DNA of 64,000 nt from Escherichia phage MN04, in the sequence record MT129654.1; one strand, written 5' to 3'. A program made the translations under genes and the position numbers. Position 1 is the stretch's first letter. Each line of letters begins with the position of its first letter. Positions 6,205 to 55,920 of the stretch are shown piece by piece. The notes beneath the pieces are model-generated. The model had not been told where the DNA came from, did not search any database, and saw only the letters and a program-made list of their open reading frames with translations.

Positions 6205-7020
6205 TTAAGAAATTCGAGATGCTGCGATTGCAGACAGGTCCGCGAAGGACAGGGTAGGCTTAGTGCCTTTTTCTTCAACTGCTTCCGAAATATAATTCAG
6301 TGCTGCAGCATCGTCTTCAGTTTTATTTATAGCGGCTTCGGTGATTGGTTTTTCAACGTCAGTCTGGCCTTTAACCATTTCAACGATAGCGCCAATTTTT
6401 TTACCAAATGCATCGGAATAATCCATGCCTTCTACCAGAGAACTAACTTTTTCTTTCTGAGATTCAGTCAGGTCTTTAGTTGCTTCAGTCAACGCAACTT
6501 CACGCTGTACGTAATTAATATATGCATCACGCTTACCAACTTCTTCGAACAGACGAGCGGTTTCATCTTTCTGCTCTTGGAGTTCTTCTTCCATTTCAGC
6601 AACAACATCCACTGCTTCTTCTGGAACAACCACATTGTGTTCAACAAACAGTTCTTTCATACCCATCAACATGGATTCGAACAGTTCGGCTTTAATACCT
6701 TTATCAACAGCCAGCTGGTTTTCAGCCATCCATTCTTTAGCAACGTGGTCAAGGAAACGACCAGCAGCTTCTTGGATTTTCTTATCAGCTTTTTCTTCAG
6801 CTTCTTCTTTATTTTTCTCAACTTCTTCTTCCGCTTTTTCAGCGATTTTAGCGATGTGAGATTCAGCCAGTTTAACGGCGTGTTGCTTGACGGTAGCTTC
6901 GAATACAGTGCCGAAAGTTTCTTTTGCTTCCGGAGAAATATTAACTGATTCGAAAATACTGTCAAGAGCAACGGAAGCATCAATATTCTGTGCTTCGGCG
7001 ATCAGTTGTTCTTTAAGCAT
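6205..7020 (-). CDS. gp22: Prohead core scaffold protein gp22
   Basis: 271 aa acidic, helical, Glu/Lys-rich; T4 position between 21 and 23. Confidence 0.8.
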   Translation of the reverse strand: MLKEQLIAEAQNIDASVALDSIFESVNISPEAKETFGTVFEATVKQHAVKLAESHIAKIAEKAEEEVEKNKEEAEEKADKKIQEAAGRFLDHVAKEWMAENQLAVDKGIKAELFESMLMGMKELFVEHNVVVPEEAVDVVAEMEEELQEQKDETARLFEEVGKRDAYINYVQREVALTEATKDLTESQKEKVSSLVEGMDYSDAFGKKIGAIVEMVKGQTDVEKPITEAAINKTEDDAAALNYISEAVEEKGTKPTLSFADLSAIAASRIS

Positions 7021-7047
7021 TTTGTAGTCCTGTTGTTTAGATAATAA

Positions 7048-7055
7048 TATTTATA
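7048..7055 (-). promoter_or_regulatory. Late promoter TATAAATA for gp22
   Basis: TATAAATA on minus strand overlapping gp21 stop, about 28 nt upstream of gp22 ATG. Confidence 0.55.
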
Positions 7056-7686
7056 ACGCTTTTTTCATGGCCTCTGCGAGAGCCATAAAGGCGTCATCGG
7101 CACTGGTATCGGTATCTACCGTTTGTGATTCTGTAATTTGTTTAGGAGTTACATAAGCATCAGGAGCAGATGGACCCCATACTGCATCAACACCGACGGT
7201 TAATTTATAACCTTCGTTTACACGCTTATATCCTTTATTGGTTTCGGTTAAAGAACCTAGACCACGAGAACTAACACCAGGCACCCAACCGGCTCTAATA
7301 TTAGCAGCTAGTTTATCACCAGGACCATGGTCGCCTTCAATAATACGAGCACGTCCATAAACGTCATTACCTTTCCACCACATATCTTCAATAATAATAG
7401 CGGCTTGCATAGGGTCGACGTTAGCACGAGGCGGATGATTTAATTCTCCTAAAGCTTGTTTAGTAGCAACCTGTTCTGCCATATAATCGGCAACAGCTTT
7501 TTCCAAAATAGGTTTTGGATAAAGGCGTTTATTACGGTTAACCACTTCGGCTTGCATGAATATGCCTTCTATATAAAGGCCCGGGGCAAGTCCAGAATCT
7601 TTTCCATCATGAGATTCCAACATCGGAACCCCATCGATAATTTCACCTGGTTGTCCCCAATGTTCGATGAGCAATTCAGGTTTCAT
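7051..7686 (-). CDS. gp21: Prohead protease gp21
   Basis: 211 aa; size and position match T4 gp21. Confidence 0.85.
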   Translation of the reverse strand: MKPELLIEHWGQPGEIIDGVPMLESHDGKDSGLAPGLYIEGIFMQAEVVNRNKRLYPKPILEKAVADYMAEQVATKQALGELNHPPRANVDPMQAAIIIEDMWWKGNDVYGRARIIEGDHGPGDKLAANIRAGWVPGVSSRGLGSLTETNKGYKRVNEGYKLTVGVDAVWGPSAPDAYVTPKQITESQTVDTDTSADDAFMALAEAMKKAL

Positions 7687-8114
7687 TAGTTAAGTCCAAA
7701 GGCTTTACGTTTAGAACGAGCTTTCTTACGCTTACGTTCAGCACGTACTTGAGTAGACGGGTTAGCACGTTTGGTTTTAGATGCTTTGCGAGCAATCTGA
7801 CGGCGTTTTGCTTTAGACAACCCAGTCGTTTGATAAGCGTTGCGTTGACGGGTTTTAATATCTTTAGTACGAGTAAGCTCACCTTTAGAAGAGACGTGCT
7901 TAACGATAAATTCGTTAAGAGCCATATTTTCATTCAAAGAGGCGATGGCAATAGCTGTATCGATATCACCATCAGCAATCATGTTCTCTACAAGATTATT
8001 TATATCGCTTTTCTCGAGGGCTTCAGAAAGAGTAGCAAAACGTCCCTGTGCTTCTGGAATTTTGGCCTCTACGCTTTCTAGAGTTAATTCGTAATCATCA
8101 GGGATAAGGAACAT
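7686..8114 (-). CDS. gp68: Prohead core protein gp68
   Basis: 142 aa; T4 order 20-67-68-21; basic C-terminus. Confidence 0.65.
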
Positions 8115-8389
8115 TATTCGTCGTCCTCGTCGTCTTCATCATCGTCATCACCTTCATCCGCATCGTCAGATTCTTTTTTGTCTTTCTTATCTGCTTTATC
8201 GGATTTTTCGTCTTTATCTTCGTCTTCGTCATCTTCGTCGGCTTCTTCGCCTTCAATCATAACGGAGCGAGCAATTTCTGCTTTACGGGCTTCAATCAAA
8301 GCGGCTACTCGAGATTCGATAAGCGGGCCTGCTGCTTTACGAACTGCTACGAGGTCGTTTGATTTAATAGCTTCGATTAAATCTTCCAT
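8114..8389 (-). CDS. gp67: Prohead core protein gp67
   Basis: 91 aa with poly-acidic Asp/Glu tail; T4 synteny. Confidence 0.65.
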
Positions 8390-9963
8390 TAGAAATCCTC
8401 TTCTTCTTCATCTGGGTTTTGGAAACGAGCCTCTTTAGACTCTTCTTCAATTTGCTTAGCTTCTTGATTAATTTCTTCGTCAGTCATCTGAAGGAAATCT
8501 TTCATAGCCGTTTGATGTGAAATATACTTACCAATAAATGGTTCAGCCATCGTTAGCATATTGATTCTGCGTTCCATGATTTCCGCATCTTTCATTTCAC
8601 TGAAATAGCTATCACGGTTGAACGTAACTTTAATATTATTTATTTCTCTTTCCCACTCATCTTCTGTAATAATCTTTTTAAGAATGAGGTTTGTTTTTAA
8701 TGGGTCTAAGAAAATTTCTTCAAATTTATTTTGGAGCTGTCGAATCCATTTAGCAAATTTCAACTCATCGCGGGTGATTGCTGTACCAGCATCAAACATA
8801 ACACCGGAATTAGATTCACTAGGGATACGTGACTCTGGGATACGCAGCGCACGATAAAGTGCTGTGCGGAAATAAAGAACGTCATCCATATCACTCATAC
8901 CTGTGGCACCAGGCATGGTATCAACTTCTGTTACCGCTTTACCGTCTCGACGTTGCAACCAATAGTCTTCGGTCATTGACATATTATGTTGCTGGTTTTT
9001 AATTTTACCGGTCGAAGCATCATATACCACACGGTTTTTCATCGTGTTCATGATATGTTGCATTTGTGCTGCAGCCTTACGTGAAGGCATATTACCTGTA
9101 TCGATATAAAACACACGACGGTCGGGAGCACGTGTAATACGGTAGATGACCATTGCGTCTTCCATCAATTTAAGCTGGTTTGCAGGCTTAATAGCACGTT
9201 GCAAATAGCCAATGATGTTTTTACCACAACAATCTAATAATCCAGAATGTGCATAAACTACAGCAGCACGAGGAATTTTAACTTTAGTCCCAGCTGAATA
9301 AATGCGTCCGTCAGCACAATAACTTTCATGACCAGTATCGTAAACGAAAAACTCGCGGTACCCATCTACAATTTTAACACCATCTTCCATACGTGTAACA
9401 ATTTCACGAATATATTGGACTTGGCGCGGGTCTAAGCGTCGAAGCTCTTGTACGCCATCTTTCATTTTTTTAGGGTTTATAATTTTATGAAAGAATATTC
9501 TTGAGTCTACATACCAACGTTGGAAATGGTCGGTGCCTTTACGTTGGAAATTTAAAAGATTCAAAACTTCACTAAATTCAGCCAAAATTTTATCTTTAAT
9601 TGATTGACTGAAATCTGTCCCGTCTAAATTTAATGCAACTACTTCTTTATCATCCTCGTAGACAATAGCGTCAGACACAATTTCTTGAACTGCGTTATCG
9701 ACTTCATAGTTGTTCATCAAATTACGGTAGGTATCAATGAGTTCCCTGGTGTTTTTAACTTCAGGCTCATTACTACCAAACATTTGTTGCATAAGAGCGT
9801 TATAAGGAATATTTTGCTCTTGGGTTTCAATTTCGCGAGCGCCATCATCAAGCTTAGGTGCAGTGACAGACTCTAAATTGTTATTAATTTGTTGTTTATA
9901 TTCTTTTTCGTCTTCATTAGCCCATGGCTTAAGAAAACTTAATATTGTATTAAAGTTTGCCAT
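8389..9963 (-). CDS. gp20: Portal vertex protein gp20
   Basis: 524 aa, same length as T4 gp20; synteny. Confidence 0.9.
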
Positions 9964-10697: not shown

Positions 10698-12680
10698 TTA
10701 TACTAAAGGTCCAATCAATTCATCAAAATCAGCACCAGTGCTCGTTGCAACGAAGTTCAACGTGATGTAATTTATCGATCTCGCAGGTTTGATGTATATA
10801 TTAGCAATAAACTCATTACGGTCGATAACCGCAGGGGTGTTCACTGTAGTATCACAAACCACACGTCCTTCATAAATCCCACCAAGTGCCTTAATACCGT
10901 CTAAGTACTGAGAAACTTCCATACGGAAGCTTGAACGAGTGAAGTTATCGTTCAATTCAAACAGTTTATATTTAGAGGCATCACCGATATTTTTCTTAAG
11001 CATGTTGAACAGACGGCGAACGTTAATGTGGTCCATCGGAGATGGAACTTTAGTTGCAGTCTTATCACCAAACAATACGAAACCATCACCGCCAGCAAAA
11101 CCAACAACCGGGTTAATAGCTTCCTGGTACATGCGGTCACGTTGTGCTTGACGTGGTTCAATTGCCAATTTCAGAACGTTAAGAATCTGACCACGGTTAT
11201 AACCGGCAGGAGACATCCAAGGCTGAGACACATCATCAGTACGTGCACACAAACCAGCCAAATCAGCAGCCAGTGGTACCCAACGGTTTACGTCGTTATA
11301 TTTGTCGTATTGATATTTATAGTTACCATCAATAGCGGCATAAGTGGTACTGATGTTCATGTTGTTGGCATCGAAAGTACCGGCACCGGTACGCCAGTCG
11401 ATAAGGTTATCTACTGCACGAGTCAGTGGAACGTTAACCAACAGACCTTTAGGAGGAGAAATAAATGCTAAGCAATCCTGACGTTCATCAGCAATACTCA
11501 CAACGTGTTTCTGAACAGTAGAAGCCACTTCATCGCCTTCACCAGCAACAGCACCAGCAATAAGCAGGTTAATATGGAGTGCTTCACGGTCGGCAAACAA
11601 ATCCCAACCCTGCATCAAATCGCCTGCAGTAACTTTATCGTTGGCGGAAATACCACCAGACAGATTAATGATACCACTAAATCCTTTCGGCCAGTTTAAC
11701 GAGGTAGCATAGATGTAATTAGAAGTACCTTTAGCGAAATAATCGTCAAGATAAATGTTATTACCGTAAACGTCTTTTTCACCTTCTTTGGTGGAAAGTA
11801 CGACTGATTCTACTATAGCGCCATCGCGACGAACGATAATTGCGTATTGGTCATCTGTTTGTGGGCCGTAATTAAATACTGCCTTGGCAATAGAAGCACG
11901 GGTACCGCCACCAGGATAAACATCCAACATTTTAGAAGAACCGGCTTCGTAAGCTGCTTTAGAAACGATTTCTACTTCCAGAGTAGAACCAATTTCACCA
12001 GGATAAAGGGCCACTACGCCTGGCATAGCAAATTTCTTAAGGGCCGCTTGGAATTCAAGAGAAGTAATAGCTTCTTCACTATTCTCGGCTTCTGTCAAAA
12101 GAATACCGGAATCCGTAACAATTTTACCTACGGTAATAGTACCAGAAACACCCGAAGAGGCGGAAGTAACTTCAGCAGTCCAAGCCGGGCCTAGGGTAGG
12201 ATACTGGTTTAAAGAACGTGCGTAAGCAATAATTTTTGCTGACGGAATAAACACAGAAAGAATTTTACCGTCTGTATCTACAGAAGTCACACGACCTTCA
12301 GATTCGACTACAGTTTGGTTATATTTAATATTAATTTTATCGCCTACAGCATAGTTGGAACCAGCCGTAGTAATAGTGGTTTCAATATTACCAGCGATAG
12401 GAGATGCGTTTTTAGCAAATTCGCGACTAACAACACGAACTGTACGAAGGTCATTACCATACTGGAGGAAGTTCATACCAGACATAAAGTAATCTGCTAC
12501 TTCGTTATTAGGACCTCCAAACAAATCAACCAGTTCAACTTCATTGGTAATCTGAGTTACCTGGAAAGCAGGGCCCCACTGGAATTTACCAACCAGCGCT
12601 GCACGACCCGTTGCGTTACGAACGACAGTACTCTGTACGGACGTTTCTTTGAGCTCAATGCCCGGTGATAATAAAGCCAT
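10698..12680 (-). CDS. gp18: Tail sheath protein gp18
   Basis: 660 aa (T4 gp18 is 659); synteny. Confidence 0.9.
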   Translation of the reverse strand: MALLSPGIELKETSVQSTVVRNATGRAALVGKFQWGPAFQVTQITNEVELVDLFGGPNNEVADYFMSGMNFLQYGNDLRTVRVVSREFAKNASPIAGNIETTITTAGSNYAVGDKINIKYNQTVVESEGRVTSVDTDGKILSVFIPSAKIIAYARSLNQYPTLGPAWTAEVTSASSGVSGTITVGKIVTDSGILLTEAENSEEAITSLEFQAALKKFAMPGVVALYPGEIGSTLEVEIVSKAAYEAGSSKMLDVYPGGGTRASIAKAVFNYGPQTDDQYAIIVRRDGAIVESVVLSTKEGEKDVYGNNIYLDDYFAKGTSNYIYATSLNWPKGFSGIINLSGGISANDKVTAGDLMQGWDLFADREALHINLLIAGAVAGEGDEVASTVQKHVVSIADERQDCLAFISPPKGLLVNVPLTRAVDNLIDWRTGAGTFDANNMNISTTYAAIDGNYKYQYDKYNDVNRWVPLAADLAGLCARTDDVSQPWMSPAGYNRGQILNVLKLAIEPRQAQRDRMYQEAINPVVGFAGGDGFVLFGDKTATKVPSPMDHINVRRLFNMLKKNIGDASKYKLFELNDNFTRSSFRMEVSQYLDGIKALGGIYEGRVVCDTTVNTPAVIDRNEFIANIYIKPARSINYITLNFVATSTGADFDELIGPLV

Positions 12681-12709
12681 TTTGAATCCTCTTGGTTATG
12701 CTTTATTGT

Positions 12710-15107
<2,398 letters not shown>

Positions 15108-50865: not shown

Positions 50866-51411
50866 ATGAAAACGTTTTTAACCGGTAGTTATCTATCCCT
50901 GATGAATGCTTTTGCAAACCATTCTGATGCTAGAGTAGAACACATTTGTAATAGTGGGTTTTATGTACCCGATTCACCAACCCTGTTTAAAGAATGCTGC
51001 ACCTTAAAACTTGACGGCGGACGCCAATCTGGCAAAACAAGGGCAGTATCCATTTTTGCTACAGAATGGTTAGCTAATGGTGGCTCTATTGTTATTTTGT
51101 CTAATAACACGGCGTATGCTAATGTTTCGGCTACTGCAATCCGAAAAGAATATTTTAATAACCATACAGAAAGTATTAAGTACCGTTTGTACACTGATTC
51201 TGTTCGTAGTTTTATTGGTAACACTGCATGCAAATTCCGTGGATTATCACTTTCACGGGTTCTGTATATAATTGATGAGCCTGTTAAAACACCTGATATG
51301 GATAAGATTTATGATGCTCATATAAAGGTAGTCCAGAATTGCTGCCGAGCTCAATGCGTAGAAAGAAATCAAACCGCAAGACCTTTGTTTTTTGTGATAG
51401 GAATGCAATGA
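50866..51411 (+). CDS. P-loop NTPase (hypothetical)
   Basis: 181 aa; Walker A 'GGRQSGKT', Walker B 'LYIIDEP'. Confidence 0.55.
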   Translation: MKTFLTGSYLSLMNAFANHSDARVEHICNSGFYVPDSPTLFKECCTLKLDGGRQSGKTRAVSIFATEWLANGGSIVILSNNTAYANVSATAIRKEYFNNHTESIKYRLYTDSVRSFIGNTACKFRGLSLSRVLYIIDEPVKTPDMDKIYDAHIKVVQNCCRAQCVERNQTARPLFFVIGMQ

Positions 51412-51704
51412 TGACTGATGAAGAGCTTTTTGAGTTCTGTTATTTCTCACGTAAGGTTCGAAGAGAGGACCTTACTGCAAATTTCGAATATGCTTATTTC
51501 TATCCATTAGAATATGTATTCATGTCAGGGCCCTTTAAGGGCTCTCGTTTTAGATGCCATGCCCCAAGCATCCGATTAATGAAACAGGTTCCTTACTTCA
51601 CTCTCGAGTTCATCTCTGGGCCGTGTAAGGGTATTATTACTCGCAGTCTCTTGACGTATGACCAAGAGATTCATATGATTTCTGACTGGAAAAAATATGT
51701 CTAA
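51408..51704 (+). CDS. Hypothetical protein, translationally coupled to P-loop gene
   Basis: ATG 51408 overlapping upstream TGA; 98 aa with internal duplication (YVFMSGPFKGSRF / LEFISGPCKGII). Confidence 0.45.
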   Translation: MMTDEELFEFCYFSRKVRREDLTANFEYAYFYPLEYVFMSGPFKGSRFRCHAPSIRLMKQVPYFTLEFISGPCKGIITRSLLTYDQEIHMISDWKKYV

Positions 51705-51915
51705 ATTGACAATTGAAGGCTCTGATGAAGCCCTGAAGATGTTTGTTGACTGGTTCCACGAACAGGGCGAACAAGGCTTTATGGAATGTTGGGACGGTGG
51801 CCAATGGAATGGTAAAGAAATTGTTTACCCGACTACGTATATCTCTGTTAGTGGTGGATACGATGGCCTTCGTTTTGTAGAATATGATATTGCATCTGAT
51901 GAGGAAGTGAAATGA
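51697..51915 (+). CDS. Hypothetical protein
   Basis: 72 aa; ATG overlaps upstream stop. Confidence 0.45.
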   Translation: MSKLTIEGSDEALKMFVDWFHEQGEQGFMECWDGGQWNGKEIVYPTTYISVSGGYDGLRFVEYDIASDEEVK

Positions 51916-52190
51916 TTGAAGATATCAAGGGTTACAAGCCACATACCGACGATAAAATCAGTAAAGTGAATGCCATTAAAGATGCTGAAGTTCGATTAGG
52001 CTTAATCTTTAAAGCATTAGAAGAAGAATACGTTGAAGCCTTTACATGCTCAGGTGTTGATAAAATGAGTGATGAAGAATTCGACCTCACTCATGAACGT
52101 CTCGCCCAGATTCGTACGGCAATCGAACGCTTGAAAGAAGCCTCCATGTGGGCCTGTCGTTCTGTTTTCCAACCCGAAGAAAAATACTAA
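51912..52190 (+). CDS. Hypothetical protein
   Basis: 92 aa; ATGA overlap. Confidence 0.45.
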   Translation: MIEDIKGYKPHTDDKISKVNAIKDAEVRLGLIFKALEEEYVEAFTCSGVDKMSDEEFDLTHERLAQIRTAIERLKEASMWACRSVFQPEEKY

Positions 52191-52195
52191 AAGCA

Positions 52196-52240
52196 GTTTA
52201 CATCTCCTGTAGACGTGGTACTATAGACCTATCAACTACA
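52196..52240 (+). promoter_or_regulatory. Early promoter module with flanking inverted repeat
   Basis: GTTTACA; CTCCTGTAG ... TACTATAGACCTATCAA ... CTACAGGAG. Confidence 0.6.
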
Positions 52241-52252
52241 GGAGATTACAAA

Positions 52253-52711
52253 ATGTCAGAAATTAATTCAGAAGTATTCATCCGCCGCAACAAATTACGT
52301 CGTCAGTTCGAAACCGAATTTCGTGAACTTAACGCGTCCATCAAAAAAGCCGCCATCAAGAGCGGTGTCCCAGCTTTCTTTATTAAGTACTCTAATCACT
52401 TGTTGGACCGTGCTATCCAACGTGAAATTGACGAAAAATATGTTTTCTCTTTGTTCAAGAAGCTCCATAATCATGTTAAAGAAATCCATGAATTTTTAAT
52501 CCAGGAGCCTCTTCCTGACATAGAATCTGAAATTGTCCCAGGTAAAGTGTATCGTCCACTGCGTCTCGAGATTACCGATAAAACCTTATGGTTGGGTATG
52601 ACCGTAGATCGTAAACATCCTGATAAAGGATATTCATTAAAATGTCGTATGGCATTTGTTAACTCTAAACGTTTAGAAGGTAAAACCAGCACGAAAGTAA
52701 TCTATCTTTAA
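52253..52711 (+). CDS. regB: RegB-like endoribonuclease (tentative)
   Basis: 152 aa (T4 RegB 153); early promoter; position between ip genes and tk; assignment by size and synteny, not confirmed alignment. Confidence 0.45.
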   Translation: MSEINSEVFIRRNKLRRQFETEFRELNASIKKAAIKSGVPAFFIKYSNHLLDRAIQREIDEKYVFSLFKKLHNHVKEIHEFLIQEPLPDIESEIVPGKVYRPLRLEITDKTLWLGMTVDRKHPDKGYSLKCRMAFVNSKRLEGKTSTKVIYL

Positions 52712-52723
52712 TAATGAGGTCTC

Positions 52724-53263
52724 ATGAAAAAAGTATTAGCCACTTTACTATTGACAGTTAGTATGTCTGCCTATAGCGTAGAGCCTACTTTCAGTAATGA
52801 ACAACTCGATAATTTACATTATGCGTATGCTTTCGGTGAACAATACCAAAAGTCGGGAAAGTTCAAAGAAAACCCTAATCAAAAAGGATTAGGATATATA
52901 ATGGCCGGATTATTATGGCAGGAATCATCTGCTGGAATTAATCAAGGTTTAAATAAAGATAAGCACCATGCTTATGGCATGTTCCAAAATTACTTGCCTA
53001 CGTTAAGAAGTCGTGTTCAACAGGTAGGTTGGAAGATGTCAGACAAAGAAATAATTCGTATGGTCCAAAAACGACAGAACAGTGCCTCTTGGGCCTACAT
53101 TGAGCTGTCTTATTGGATTAATGTTCACAAAGGTGACCTGAGAAAAGCGATTGCTTCTTATAATGCGGGCTGGAATGTCAAAGCAGGCAGTAAATATGCT
53201 TCCGAAGTTCTAGAAAAGGCCAATTACCTAAAATCTAAAAAGATGTTTGAGGCGGTATATTAA
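52724..53263 (+). CDS. Secreted lytic transglycosylase-like protein (SLT family motifs)
   Basis: Signal peptide MKKVLATLLLTVSMSAYS; motifs 'WQESS', 'AYGMFQ', 'ASYNAGWN' resembling SLT E-S / GLMQ / AYNAG. Confidence 0.6.
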   Translation: MKKVLATLLLTVSMSAYSVEPTFSNEQLDNLHYAYAFGEQYQKSGKFKENPNQKGLGYIMAGLLWQESSAGINQGLNKDKHHAYGMFQNYLPTLRSRVQQVGWKMSDKEIIRMVQKRQNSASWAYIELSYWINVHKGDLRKAIASYNAGWNVKAGSKYASEVLEKANYLKSKKMFEAVY

Positions 53264-53620
53264 ATGATTAAACAGATGACTATAGCGCTTATGTTGATTG
53301 CTCCGGGAGTATTAGCATCACAGGTTGATGATACAAATAATTCAATTGTCGAGTATGCCACCCGTACAGCAAAAGATTATTGTCATCCAAGTAATACTGA
53401 ATGTGTTATTGAATTCAGTTCAAAAATAACAGCTGCTTTTAAAGATGGGCAGAACGACGTCGAGCATCGCCGAATGAAAGAGAAAACTCTTTCTAAAAGA
53501 TACGAGCAACGTCTAAACGTTACTGAATGTGTTCCGTCTGATAAAAAGTACAAAGAAATGTGCGCGTCTATGGTAGACAGACTCGTTGACTCTTACAACC
53601 GAGGGCTAAACTCTAAATGA
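53264..53620 (+). CDS. Secreted Cys-containing small protein (hypothetical)
   Basis: Signal peptide MIKQMTIALMLIAPGVLAS; four Cys; 118 aa. Confidence 0.5.
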   Translation: MIKQMTIALMLIAPGVLASQVDDTNNSIVEYATRTAKDYCHPSNTECVIEFSSKITAAFKDGQNDVEHRRMKEKTLSKRYEQRLNVTECVPSDKKYKEMCASMVDRLVDSYNRGLNSK

Positions 53621-54096
53621 TTATTGATTATATTAAGGGCGATATCGTCGCCCTGTTTCTCCAAGGTAATATTATTGCACATGGGTGTAACTGCTTTCAC
53701 ACAATGGGTTCAGGTGTAGCGGGTCAATTAGCAAGAGCTTATCCTAAAATTTTAGAAATTGATAAGACTACTACCGAATACGGCTCTCGTGATAAATTAG
53801 GTGATATGTCTATTGTTTTTAAACATAAGCCTAATGGATTTGCAATGTGCTATAATTTATACACCCAATACGAACCAGGCCCTAATCTTGATTACGGTGC
53901 TTTAGTAAACTGTATGATAGAATTAAATCTACAAGCAAATGACCTTTTGTTTAAACCAAGAATTTATATTCCTCGTATAGGTTGTGGTATTGCTGGTGGC
54001 GATTGGGACAAGGTTTCTCAATTAATTGATATGTTTACCCCTGATATTGATTTAATAGTGGTGGATTATGAAAGCACATTACCCACATCCGTTTGA
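53617..54096 (+). CDS. Macro-domain-like protein (putative ADP-ribose binding/processing)
   Basis: 159 aa; 'GDIVAL...NIIAHGCNCFHTMGSGVAGQLARAY' and 'IPRIGCGIAGGDWDKV' resemble macro-domain Gly-rich motifs. Confidence 0.55.
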   Translation: MIIDYIKGDIVALFLQGNIIAHGCNCFHTMGSGVAGQLARAYPKILEIDKTTTEYGSRDKLGDMSIVFKHKPNGFAMCYNLYTQYEPGPNLDYGALVNCMIELNLQANDLLFKPRIYIPRIGCGIAGGDWDKVSQLIDMFTPDIDLIVVDYESTLPTSV

Positions 54097-54280
54097 CCCT
54101 AAAAACAAAGCGGAAATTATTCGGAGTTGGACCGAAACCCGAGTAACTAAATGCCCTATAAAAAGTCAGCATAACACCGATAAATGGTATATTGGTGAAT
54201 ACGTTGAATATACTTTTATAGATAAAAATAAACGTAAACAGCATGTAGAAGAATATTGCTTAAAGGTGCAATGGTTATGA
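54068..54280 (+). CDS. Hypothetical protein
   Basis: 70 aa; overlaps upstream gene by 29 nt. Confidence 0.4.
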   Translation: MKAHYPHPFDPKNKAEIIRSWTETRVTKCPIKSQHNTDKWYIGEYVEYTFIDKNKRKQHVEEYCLKVQWL

Positions 54281-54483
54281 GCCAAGCCCGAATTCTTAAA
54301 ACGGCTAAATGTGAAAAATGTGAATGGCCGGTAATCGCAGCTTTATGCAACGATGAAATGGAATGTGAATTTGATTACTGGTGGTACTGTTCTAATAAAG
54401 GATGTTCTAATCATAAGGGTGAAGGTTTTCATTCTGGTTATTGCGAACATCCTAAATTTGTGCGATATGGTGAACCTAAATGA
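54271..54483 (+). CDS. Cys-rich small protein (putative zinc-binding)
   Basis: ATG 54271; 9 Cys including CEKCEW and CSNKGC. Confidence 0.4.
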   Translation: MVMSQARILKTAKCEKCEWPVIAALCNDEMECEFDYWWYCSNKGCSNHKGEGFHSGYCEHPKFVRYGEPK

Positions 54484-54665
54484 GTTTAAGTATTAGTCAG
54501 AAAAGTAGATTGTTTGAGCTTATTCATGAGCTTTTGGATGAACATACCGAAGCAAACGCTTTTTACGATGAATATGGCCCGCTATCCCCCGAACAGCAAG
54601 AAGAATTTGCTGATCGGTTTGATGAGAAAGAAAACGAATTAATTGCTTATGTGAATACGCTTTAA
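54480..54665 (+). CDS. Hypothetical acidic protein
   Basis: 61 aa; ATGA overlap. Confidence 0.4.
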   Translation: MSLSISQKSRLFELIHELLDEHTEANAFYDEYGPLSPEQQEEFADRFDEKENELIAYVNTL

Positions 54666-54674
54666 GAAGGTAAT

Positions 54675-55247
54675 ATGGCTCAACTTTATTTTCATTATGC
54701 GGCAATGAACTCAGGTAAGACCGCTTCATTGCTAACGGCCGCTCATAACTACAAAGAACGCGGTATGGGCGTGCTCCTTTTAAAGCCTGCGATAGACAAT
54801 AGAGAATCAAGCCATACCATTTCGTCTCGTATAGGGATTAGTCAAGAGGCCAATGCGGTGACTCCGGATATGGACCTATACGAGTTCTATCGTTGGGCTG
54901 AATCTCAAAAAGATATCCACTGTGTGTTTGTGGATGAAGCACAGTTCTTAGAACCTGCACAGATAAAACAACTGGCAAAGATAGTAGACAATTATAATGT
55001 TCCGGTTATGTGTTACGGGCTAAGAACTGATTTTCAGGGTAAACTGTTTCCTGGTTCTGCTGAATTACTCGCTACGGCAGATAAACTCGTTGAGTACAAA
55101 GGTGTGTGCCATTGCGGCCGTAAAGCTACTATGACTGCTAGGGTCCAAGATGGTGTCGCAATTAAGGACGGAGCCCAAGTTTCTATAGGTGGCAACGATT
55201 CTTACGTGTCATTGTGCAGGAAGCACTGGATAGAAATAACGAGTTGA
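54675..55247 (+). CDS. tk: Thymidine kinase
   Basis: 190 aa; 'YAAMNSGKTASLLTAAHNYKERGM' P-loop; 'VFVDEAQF'; C-terminal Cys zinc ribbon. Confidence 0.9.
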   Translation: MAQLYFHYAAMNSGKTASLLTAAHNYKERGMGVLLLKPAIDNRESSHTISSRIGISQEANAVTPDMDLYEFYRWAESQKDIHCVFVDEAQFLEPAQIKQLAKIVDNYNVPVMCYGLRTDFQGKLFPGSAELLATADKLVEYKGVCHCGRKATMTARVQDGVAIKDGAQVSIGGNDSYVSLCRKHWIEITS

Positions 55248-55254
55248 GGGTACT

Positions 55255-55533
55255 ATGGACCTAAATTCAAAGATTTTAATTCTAGCGTTCGCTGTGGCCA
55301 TCTCTTATATTGTTCTTTTGCCCATCATGGATGATGCGGCTTACAAAAGAGAGATAGAAGTTGTAGCAGCGACGTATAATGCTAATAATAAAGAATGTCC
55401 TAATAAAAATGGAATGGATTTAATTAAAGCGCATTATATGCTTTCCATTACCTCGCCTATACAGAGGAATTGGGTTGAATATAATTTTAACGACGTGTTC
55501 TATTCTTATTGTCGTAAGCTTAAAAAGCTATAA
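55255..55533 (+). CDS. Small membrane protein (hypothetical)
   Basis: 92 aa; N-terminal TM helix. Confidence 0.45.
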   Translation: MDLNSKILILAFAVAISYIVLLPIMDDAAYKREIEVVAATYNANNKECPNKNGMDLIKAHYMLSITSPIQRNWVEYNFNDVFYSYCRKLKKL

Positions 55534-55626: not shown

Positions 55627-55920
55627 ATGGGTATTTTCCGTACAGTGGCTTGTATCCTTATGATTGGATGTTTAAGCCCAACATCTTCACTAGCAAACAA
55701 ATCCGACCCTAAATTGATGGACGCCTTTGCTAGTAGTGCGATGCCAGTTTATGCGCAAATGAGTAAACCTAGTGTAAAGGCCTCCGAAGACTACTGGGCT
55801 TATGTAACTGCTTCTTGGAAAATTTCAAATTGCAATACAATAGAGTCTTGCTCGATTGAAGGTCGGGCTATCGGAGAACGATACGCTAAACTAATGAAGG
55901 TAGATGATGAAATTCAATGA
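55627..55920 (+). CDS. Secreted protein or lipoprotein (hypothetical)
   Basis: Signal peptide MGIFRTVACILMIGCLSPTSSLA with lipobox-like LMIGC. Confidence 0.5.
   Translation: MGIFRTVACILMIGCLSPTSSLANKSDPKLMDAFASSAMPVYAQMSKPSVKASEDYWAYVTASWKISNCNTIESCSIEGRAIGERYAKLMKVDDEIQ

Follow-up and report, generated by a model that had tools for sequence, protein, structure and literature searches.

Phage enzymes that reverse ADP-ribosylation of DNA

DarTG systems halt phages through ADP-ribosylation of DNA, and the phage reply consists of orphan antitoxin-like enzymes. For DarTG2, an earlier gap was that T2 and T4 both stayed resistant without adfN, as did a T4 double mutant in adfA and adfN. This gap was filled by the HIDEN-SEQ preprint of November 2025, in which a T4 transposon library on DarTG2-expressing E. 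coli returned tk.4 as the single significant hit (10.1101/2025.11.20.689424). A clean tk.4 knockout makes T4 DarTG2-sensitive, whereas the gene is non-essential on plain K-12. T4 tk.4 was accordingly named adfM (anti-DarT factor, macrodomain), with DNA de-ADP-ribosylation proposed from genetics only and without biochemistry (10.1101/2025.11.20.689424). The modification in question is the ADP-ribosylation by DarT2 of thymidine in single-stranded DNA, which blocks phage replication (PMC13309987).

Another stand-alone phage macrodomain that counters DarTG2 bears the same name, AdfM. This protein, gp104 of the chimallivirus PhiKZ, removes in vitro the ADP-ribose that DarT2 has placed on DNA; its Asn23 and Lys78 match Asn22 and Lys80 of DarG (Cell Rep 2026, PMC13309987). 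Outside phages, the stand-alone SCO6735 protein of Streptomyces hydrolyses thymidine-linked ADP-ribose on DNA and shields cells from DarT (PMC9411070). It lacks the catalytic Lys and Asp. Its Gln85 is essential, Q85A and Q85E being dead on DNA and on protein substrates, and is held in a productive rotamer by Asn27; the N27S variant is nearly dead, and G128E lowers activity. The chemistry proposed for SCO6735 is water-mediated, with the distal ribose positioned by Gln85 (PMC9411070). Human TARG1 (also called OARD1) removes both T-ADPr and U-ADPr.

A tk.4 orthologue in a Dhakavirus-like phage

The window, by which is meant the whole 64,000-nucleotide stretch of Escherichia phage MN04 (MT129654.1) analysed here, corresponds to about 45–109 kb of Escherichia phage JS98 (Straboviridae, Tevenvirinae, Dhakavirus), and the 2.6 kb around the ORF under study are 99.0% identical to that phage. 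In the ORF listing, the frame begins with ATG and encodes 159 amino acids plus a stop. Its product is 100% identical in amino acid sequence to JS98 Tk.4 (ABX11088.1), for which GenBank gives 'Tk.4 conserved hypothetical protein' and RefSeq gives 'phosphatase'. Alignment with T4 Tk.4 gives 56% identity over 155 residues with no gaps (E=8e-69), the Tk.4 family is present as a single copy in the window, and the order regB - vs.1 - vs - tk.4 - tk.3 - ... - tk is common to JS98, T2, and T4. Full-length similarity, shared gene order, and single copy identify the ORF as the orthologue of T4 tk.4.

The earlier note, made from the sequence, had singled out a 159-aa ORF with GDIVAL, IIAHGCNCFHTMGSGVAGQLARAY, and IPRIGCGIAGGDWDKV. 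All three segments are present as quoted, at residues 8–13, 19–42, and 118–133 of the translation, and the protein was correctly recognised as a macro protein, but the fact that it is the already named gene tk.4 was missed. The T4 record already carries an 'A1pp phosphatase motif' remark on tk.4. As gene, fold, and the anti-DarTG2 phenotype of the orthologue are all on record, the present analysis leaves the picture of phage-host conflict unchanged.

The positions of the gene, of its predicted active-site segments, and of neighbouring features are collected in Table 1.

Table 1. Window positions of tk.4, of its predicted functional segments, and of features nearby.
Feature	Position	Strand	Basis
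Vs.1 orthologue, 179 aa	52724..53263	+	
vs stop / tk.4 start, ATGA overlap	53617..53620	+	vs ORF end 53620, tk.4 start 53617
tk.4 (adfM orthologue) CDS, stand-alone macro domain	53617..54096	+	identity to ABX11088.1, Pfam Macro, AF2
Loop 1 of the predicted ADP-ribose pocket, H22-A35 (HGCNCFHTMGSGVA), including the G31-x-G33 turn	53680..53721	+	alignment to SCO6735, DarG, TARG1
Strand-end motif N80-L-Y-T-Q84	53854..53868	+	codons AAT TTA TAC ACC CAA; alignments
Predicted diphosphate-binding loop P119-R-I-G-C-G-I-A-G-G-D-W130	53971..54006	+	alignments
GCGIAGG segment of that loop	53980..54000		
Cys-rich 70-aa ORF between tk.3 and tk.2	54271..54483	+	PF23895 'Phage zinc binding domain', 2e-29
JS98 GenBank 'orf98 hypothetical protein', probable rI orthologue	55627..55920	+	PF24205 T4-like virus antiholin family, 2e-25

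The four-nucleotide overlap between vs and tk.4 is found likewise in T4 and T2, and tk.3 starts at 54068, 29 nt inside the end of tk.4. Such packing is tight and co-directional, and the overlap makes translational coupling of vs and tk.4 possible. Throughout the regB-tk stretch (window 51000–55500), every gene is co-directional, and starts and stops overlap or abut; RegB and thymidine kinase, which flank the tk.4 cluster, were both confirmed by Pfam. The regB-vs.1-vs-tk.4-tk.3-tk cluster is prereplicative in T4, and the position of tk.4 within it fits the label 'early region' under which the ORF had first been described. To place tk.4 in an early transcript, 51000–55500 was scanned for sigma-70 promoters and terminators. 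The 14 promoter sites found compare with 14.2 expected from shuffled sequence; since the count is no better than in shuffles, the scan is uninformative on this point.

Several neighbouring genes deserve mention in their own right. The Vs.1 orthologue has a signal-peptide-like N-terminus (MKKVLATLLLTVSMSAYS), and its motifs LLWQESSAG, AYGMFQ, and ASYNAGWN recall, as judged by eye, family-1 lytic transglycosylases; searches with it gave neither a Pfam match at E<0.01 nor a match to any PDB sequence at E<1. The antiholin-family match of the orf98 counterpart suggests that this ORF is probably the orthologue of the lysis-inhibition gene rI. An ORF of the same length as the Cys-rich one (213 nt) lies between tk.3 and tk.2 in T2, whereas in the T4 record tk.3 is directly followed by tk.2.

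A macro domain of the ALC1-like class

The macro-domain assignment rests on several agreeing lines. The Pfam Macro profile (PF01661) matches with 34.2 bits (E=2.7e-8; gathering cutoff 22) over profile positions 2–117 of 118, and the protein belongs with PHROG 335 at E=1.2e-70. Searches of PDB sequences returned macro domains only, namely BT1257, yeast Poa1p, SCO6735, DarG, and TARG1. An AF2 model built from a 76-sequence alignment (pLDDT 94.3, pTM 0.89) has the three-layer alpha/beta/alpha sandwich of solved macro domains, and its best Foldseek matches are TARG1 (top), T. aquaticus DarG, BT1257, Poa1p, and SCO6735. In addition, G31, G33, G122, and G124 are conserved in all ten aligned macro domains as well as in the family. 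The agreement of Pfam score, PDB matches, model, and Foldseek matches places the protein in the ALC1-like/TARG1-like macro class. The initial macro-domain call was therefore borne out by profile, by solved-structure sequences, and by predicted fold; a different Rossmann-like family, which would have spoken against it, did not emerge from the profile search, and structure prediction gave the macro fold.

The family is large, with homologues in 2762 phage records and, among 50%-identity clusters, 6187 at E<=1e-3, of which 1629 at E<=1e-10. The database labels 'phosphatase' and 'RNase III inhibitor' attached to it are inherited names with no tested functions behind them, and on thousands of phage genes they mislead.

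Membership of this class bears on a role that the earlier note had raised, in which the protein would reverse or tune the ADP-ribosylation of host proteins by the phage's own Alt, ModA, and ModB. T-even phages do encode three ADP-ribosyltransferases, but these are R-S-E enzymes that modify arginine (PMC8120803), whereas the activities documented for TARG1, DarG, and SCO6735 in the literature consulted concern thymine- or uracil-base and PARP1 protein-linked ADP-ribose, not the arginine-linked form. The Legionella macrodomain MavL, arginine-specific according to the title of a cited reference, is absent among the structural matches listed, and the dispensability of tk.4 on plain K-12 also counts against such a role. 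As the transferases are arginine-specific and the activities of the class are recorded on other linkages, reversal of Alt/Mod marks gains no support and must be considered very improbable.

A further suggestion of the same note, degradation of NAD-derived signals, gains no support from the present results. The note had also proposed that ADP-ribosylation imposed by bacterial defences is reversed, and this matches the screen hit and the knockout sensitivity of the T4 orthologue on DarTG2 (10.1101/2025.11.20.689424). A prediction that follows is that DarTG2-sensitive phages lack the gene. It was tested on T5, the DarTG2-sensitive control: its unique 112 kb contain no Tk.4-family member (best tblastn E=3.5, best profile E=0.085), compared with 5e-67 for the window's own copy, a correlation that rests on one phage. 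Two T5 genes, T5.102 and T5.105 (6948–8595 of the T5 sequence searched), bear a Sir2 annotation (NAD-dependent deacetylase/ADP-ribosylase), so that T5 differs in its complement of NAD/ADP-ribose-related genes.

A glutamine in the catalytic-lysine column

For comparison of the active sites, PDB sequences were taken from HMMER alignments, and numbering offsets were checked against published residue numbers. In loop 1, H22 and N25 are the counterparts of SCO6735 His24 and Asn27, the latter position corresponding also to DarG Asn22. The motif N80-L-Y-T-Q84 ends a strand spanning residues 74–84 in the AF2 model, and Q84 falls in the catalytic-lysine column. In this column, Lys is found in TARG1 (K84, within ITK), in both DarGs (K80, FPTK), and in PhiKZ AdfM (K78, FPTK), whereas Gln is found in the window protein and in T4 and T2 Tk.4 (NLYTQ), as in SCO6735, where it is the essential Gln85, and BT1257 (both NMIGQ). 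In the predicted diphosphate-binding loop, G122 and G124 align with SCO6735 Gly126 and Gly128, and A126 stands at the column of TARG1 Asp125.

This pattern is a feature of the family as a whole. Gln occupies the Q84 column in all 121 close relatives, and the same holds for every one of the 138 full-length sequences that represent 50%-identity clusters. H22, N25, N80, Y82, G122, and G124 are almost invariant or invariant, G33 and A35 are invariant, and P119 and W130 vary little or not at all. By alignment, T-even Tk.4/AdfM is therefore Gln-type like SCO6735, and not Lys-type like DarG. Appropriate catalytic-dead controls for such a protein are accordingly Q84A or N25S.

The likeness to SCO6735 has its limits. 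In the alignment, the DNA-positioning residues Lys34 and Lys89 of SCO6735 have no counterparts in the window protein. S32 stands at the Lys34 column, which in the Tk.4 family is A, S, or G, and Lys89 would fall in the loop after Q84, which is shorter and contains no Lys. DNA binding would thus be arranged differently from that in SCO6735, and this is the main structural caveat for a SCO6735-like reading. TARG1-type chemistry was also considered and is ruled out for the window protein, the Lys84/Asp125 dyad being absent.

The diphosphate loop also varies within the T-even phages. The GCGIAGG of JS98 is the family consensus and occurs in SCO6735 and BT1257 as well, whereas T4 and T2 have GAGIGKG. 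The Lys of the latter is rare in the family (3/121), so that the DarTG2 phenotype has been measured on an atypical T4 variant. With three substitutions in this loop between JS98 and T4, it is across a 56% identity that we infer a shared function.

Distance from DarG

Comparison with DarG counts against the preferred reading: the DarG profiles give only 28 bits. The window protein reaches 27.8 bits on NCBIfam NF048014 (cutoff 250) and 28.4 bits on the PADLOC DarG profile, and together with T4 Tk.4 spans 28–36 bits, as opposed to 132.9 and 137.8 bits on these profiles for PhiKZ AdfM. It covers only positions 1–145 of these 329–338-position profiles. PhiKZ gp104 matches a DarG structure sequence at E=9e-25, whereas BLASTP between it (12518–13006 of the PhiKZ sequence compared) and the window protein gives 9e-4 over 33 aa only.

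Gene context points in the same direction. In the window, no darT stands beside tk.4, the adjoining genes being vs and tk.3. The family relatives in the Pelagimonas chromosome and in phage-like contigs are likewise stand-alone genes, and in these two contexts no DarT (DUF4433) neighbour was found. A strict DarG homologue is ruled out, as catalytic Lys, second domain, darT neighbour, and profile cutoff all fail. On these sequence criteria, the two published AdfM proteins, T4 Tk.4 and PhiKZ gp104, belong to different macrodomain lineages.

Proposed role and mechanism

Taken with the phenotype of the T4 orthologue, the residue pattern suggests that JS98-type Tk.4, a stand-alone macrodomain, probably serves as an orphan antitoxin against DarTG2 and hydrolyses ADP-ribosyl-thymidine by SCO6735-type chemistry. 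A lysine-independent mechanism of this kind is indicated by the retention of counterparts of His24, Asn27, Asn81, Gln85, Gly126, and Gly128, and of the GCGxAGGxW loop. On infection, DarT2 moves ADP-ribose from NAD+ onto thymidine of single-stranded phage DNA, and replication stops. The macro-domain pocket of Tk.4 would take the ADP-ribose moiety, and the enzyme would cleave the ribose-thymine bond, so that normal DNA would be regained. In place of a catalytic lysine, Q84, held by N25, would orient the distal ribose so that water can attack it. JS98 Tk.4 would thus share the role of T4 Tk.4 and act catalytically on ADP-ribosyl-thymidine, and Q84 would be essential to it.

The published genetics could also be explained if DarTG2 were neutralised mainly without catalysis, by binding and inhibition of DarT2 or by shielding of the ADP-ribosylated DNA. 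Indeed, the dead variants SCO6735 Q85A, DarG K80A, and TARG1 K84A each inhibit DarT in vitro by interaction, SCO6735 most strongly (PMC9411070), and the T4 data do not separate catalytic from non-catalytic modes (10.1101/2025.11.20.689424). However, among hundreds of distant relatives the residues on which hydrolysis by SCO6735 depends (H, N, Q, and both G) do not vary, a signature of selection on the active site that argues for enzymatic activity. The protein is moreover too short, with 159 aa against 329–338 profile positions, to include the C-terminal DarT-binding domain of DarG, and the PhiKZ macrodomain works enzymatically (PMC13309987). A mainly non-catalytic mode is hence quite improbable, but stoichiometric inhibition of DarT2 by Tk.4 may contribute.

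A broader function must be weighed as well, in which Tk.4 would remove ADP-ribose in general or act on metabolites, with DarT2 products not its main substrate. Candidate substrates would be uracil-ADP-ribosylated RNA, Glu/Asp-linked protein ADP-ribose, O-acetyl-ADP-ribose, and ADP-ribose-1''-phosphate, the last in keeping with the database 'phosphatase' label. SCO6735, TARG1, and DarG also remove uracil-linked ADP-ribose from RNA, and the very wide spread of the family may point beyond DarT2 products. Poa1p-like residues are partly kept: Poa1p H23 aligns with the invariant H22 and S30 with T29, F152 having no confident alignment. The T29 position is nevertheless variable in the family (T in 73/140), T-even infection is not known to supply ADP-ribose-1''-phosphate, and the sole phenotype recorded for the T4 orthologue is DarTG2-specific. 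A function in which DarT2 products are secondary is consequently unlikely. Broader activities are in any case compatible with a role against DarTG2 and do not exclude it, and the Gln-type family (about 2,800 phage records) may be a broad eraser of base-linked ADP-ribose, on thymine in DNA and uracil in RNA, rather than a countermeasure to one defence.

Such a role has practical consequences. The presence of Tk.4/AdfM in JS98-type phages helps to forecast which therapeutic or model phages withstand DarTG2-bearing E. coli. Inhibitors directed at DarG, or annotation based on its profiles, would overlook the Gln-type family.

Comparison with known systems

The nearest described system is Tk.4/AdfM of T4, a Tequatrovirus, which likewise lies between vs and tk.3 and has the H/N/Q/G-x-G set of the window protein. 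T-even phages also possess a functional analogue in AdfN of T4 (gene 30.3, NADAR), an orphan antitoxin-like hydrolase that clears DarT-installed ADP-ribose from DNA. AdfN, whose fold is unrelated, acts specifically on guanosine-ADPr (DarTG1) and has no effect on DarTG2. Judging from the T4 map, adfN and adfA, the latter of which we take to be T4 gene 61.2, presumably both lie outside the window.

Among cellular macro domains, TARG1 (4j5r) is of the same class and has the PRIGCG loop of the window protein, which however carries Q84 and A126 in place of the Lys84/Asp125 dyad. Yeast Poa1p (6lfq) is an ADP-ribose-1''-phosphate phosphatase of tRNA-splicing metabolism, and Bacteroides BT1257 (2afc/2fg1) has no known function; neither has a link to phage defence. 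SCO6735 of Streptomyces coelicolor (5e3b) is likewise stand-alone, ALC1-like, and Gln-type. It differs in that it shares only about 27% identity with the window protein, and its gene is a bacterial one, inducible by DNA damage, rather than a phage counter-defence.

The DarG2 antitoxin macrodomain (T. aquaticus 5m31, M. tuberculosis 5m3i) stands apart by its Lys80, replaced by Gln in the window protein, and by its C-terminal DarT-binding domain and adjacent darT; gp104 of PhiKZ, with its Lys78, is aligned with DarG and forms a separate lineage from the phage protein described here. What is added by the present work is this Lys-to-Gln distinction, which ties T-even AdfM to SCO6735 and sets it apart from DarG, a modest point. 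The chances appear evenly balanced that the AdfM of T-even phages and dhakaviruses is a mechanistically distinct, lysine-less, SCO6735-like DNA de-ADP-ribosylase, and that two macrodomain lineages have been recruited against DarT2. If so, chimalliviruses would use a DarG-derived Lys-type and T4-like phages a Gln-type, with one name in use for both.
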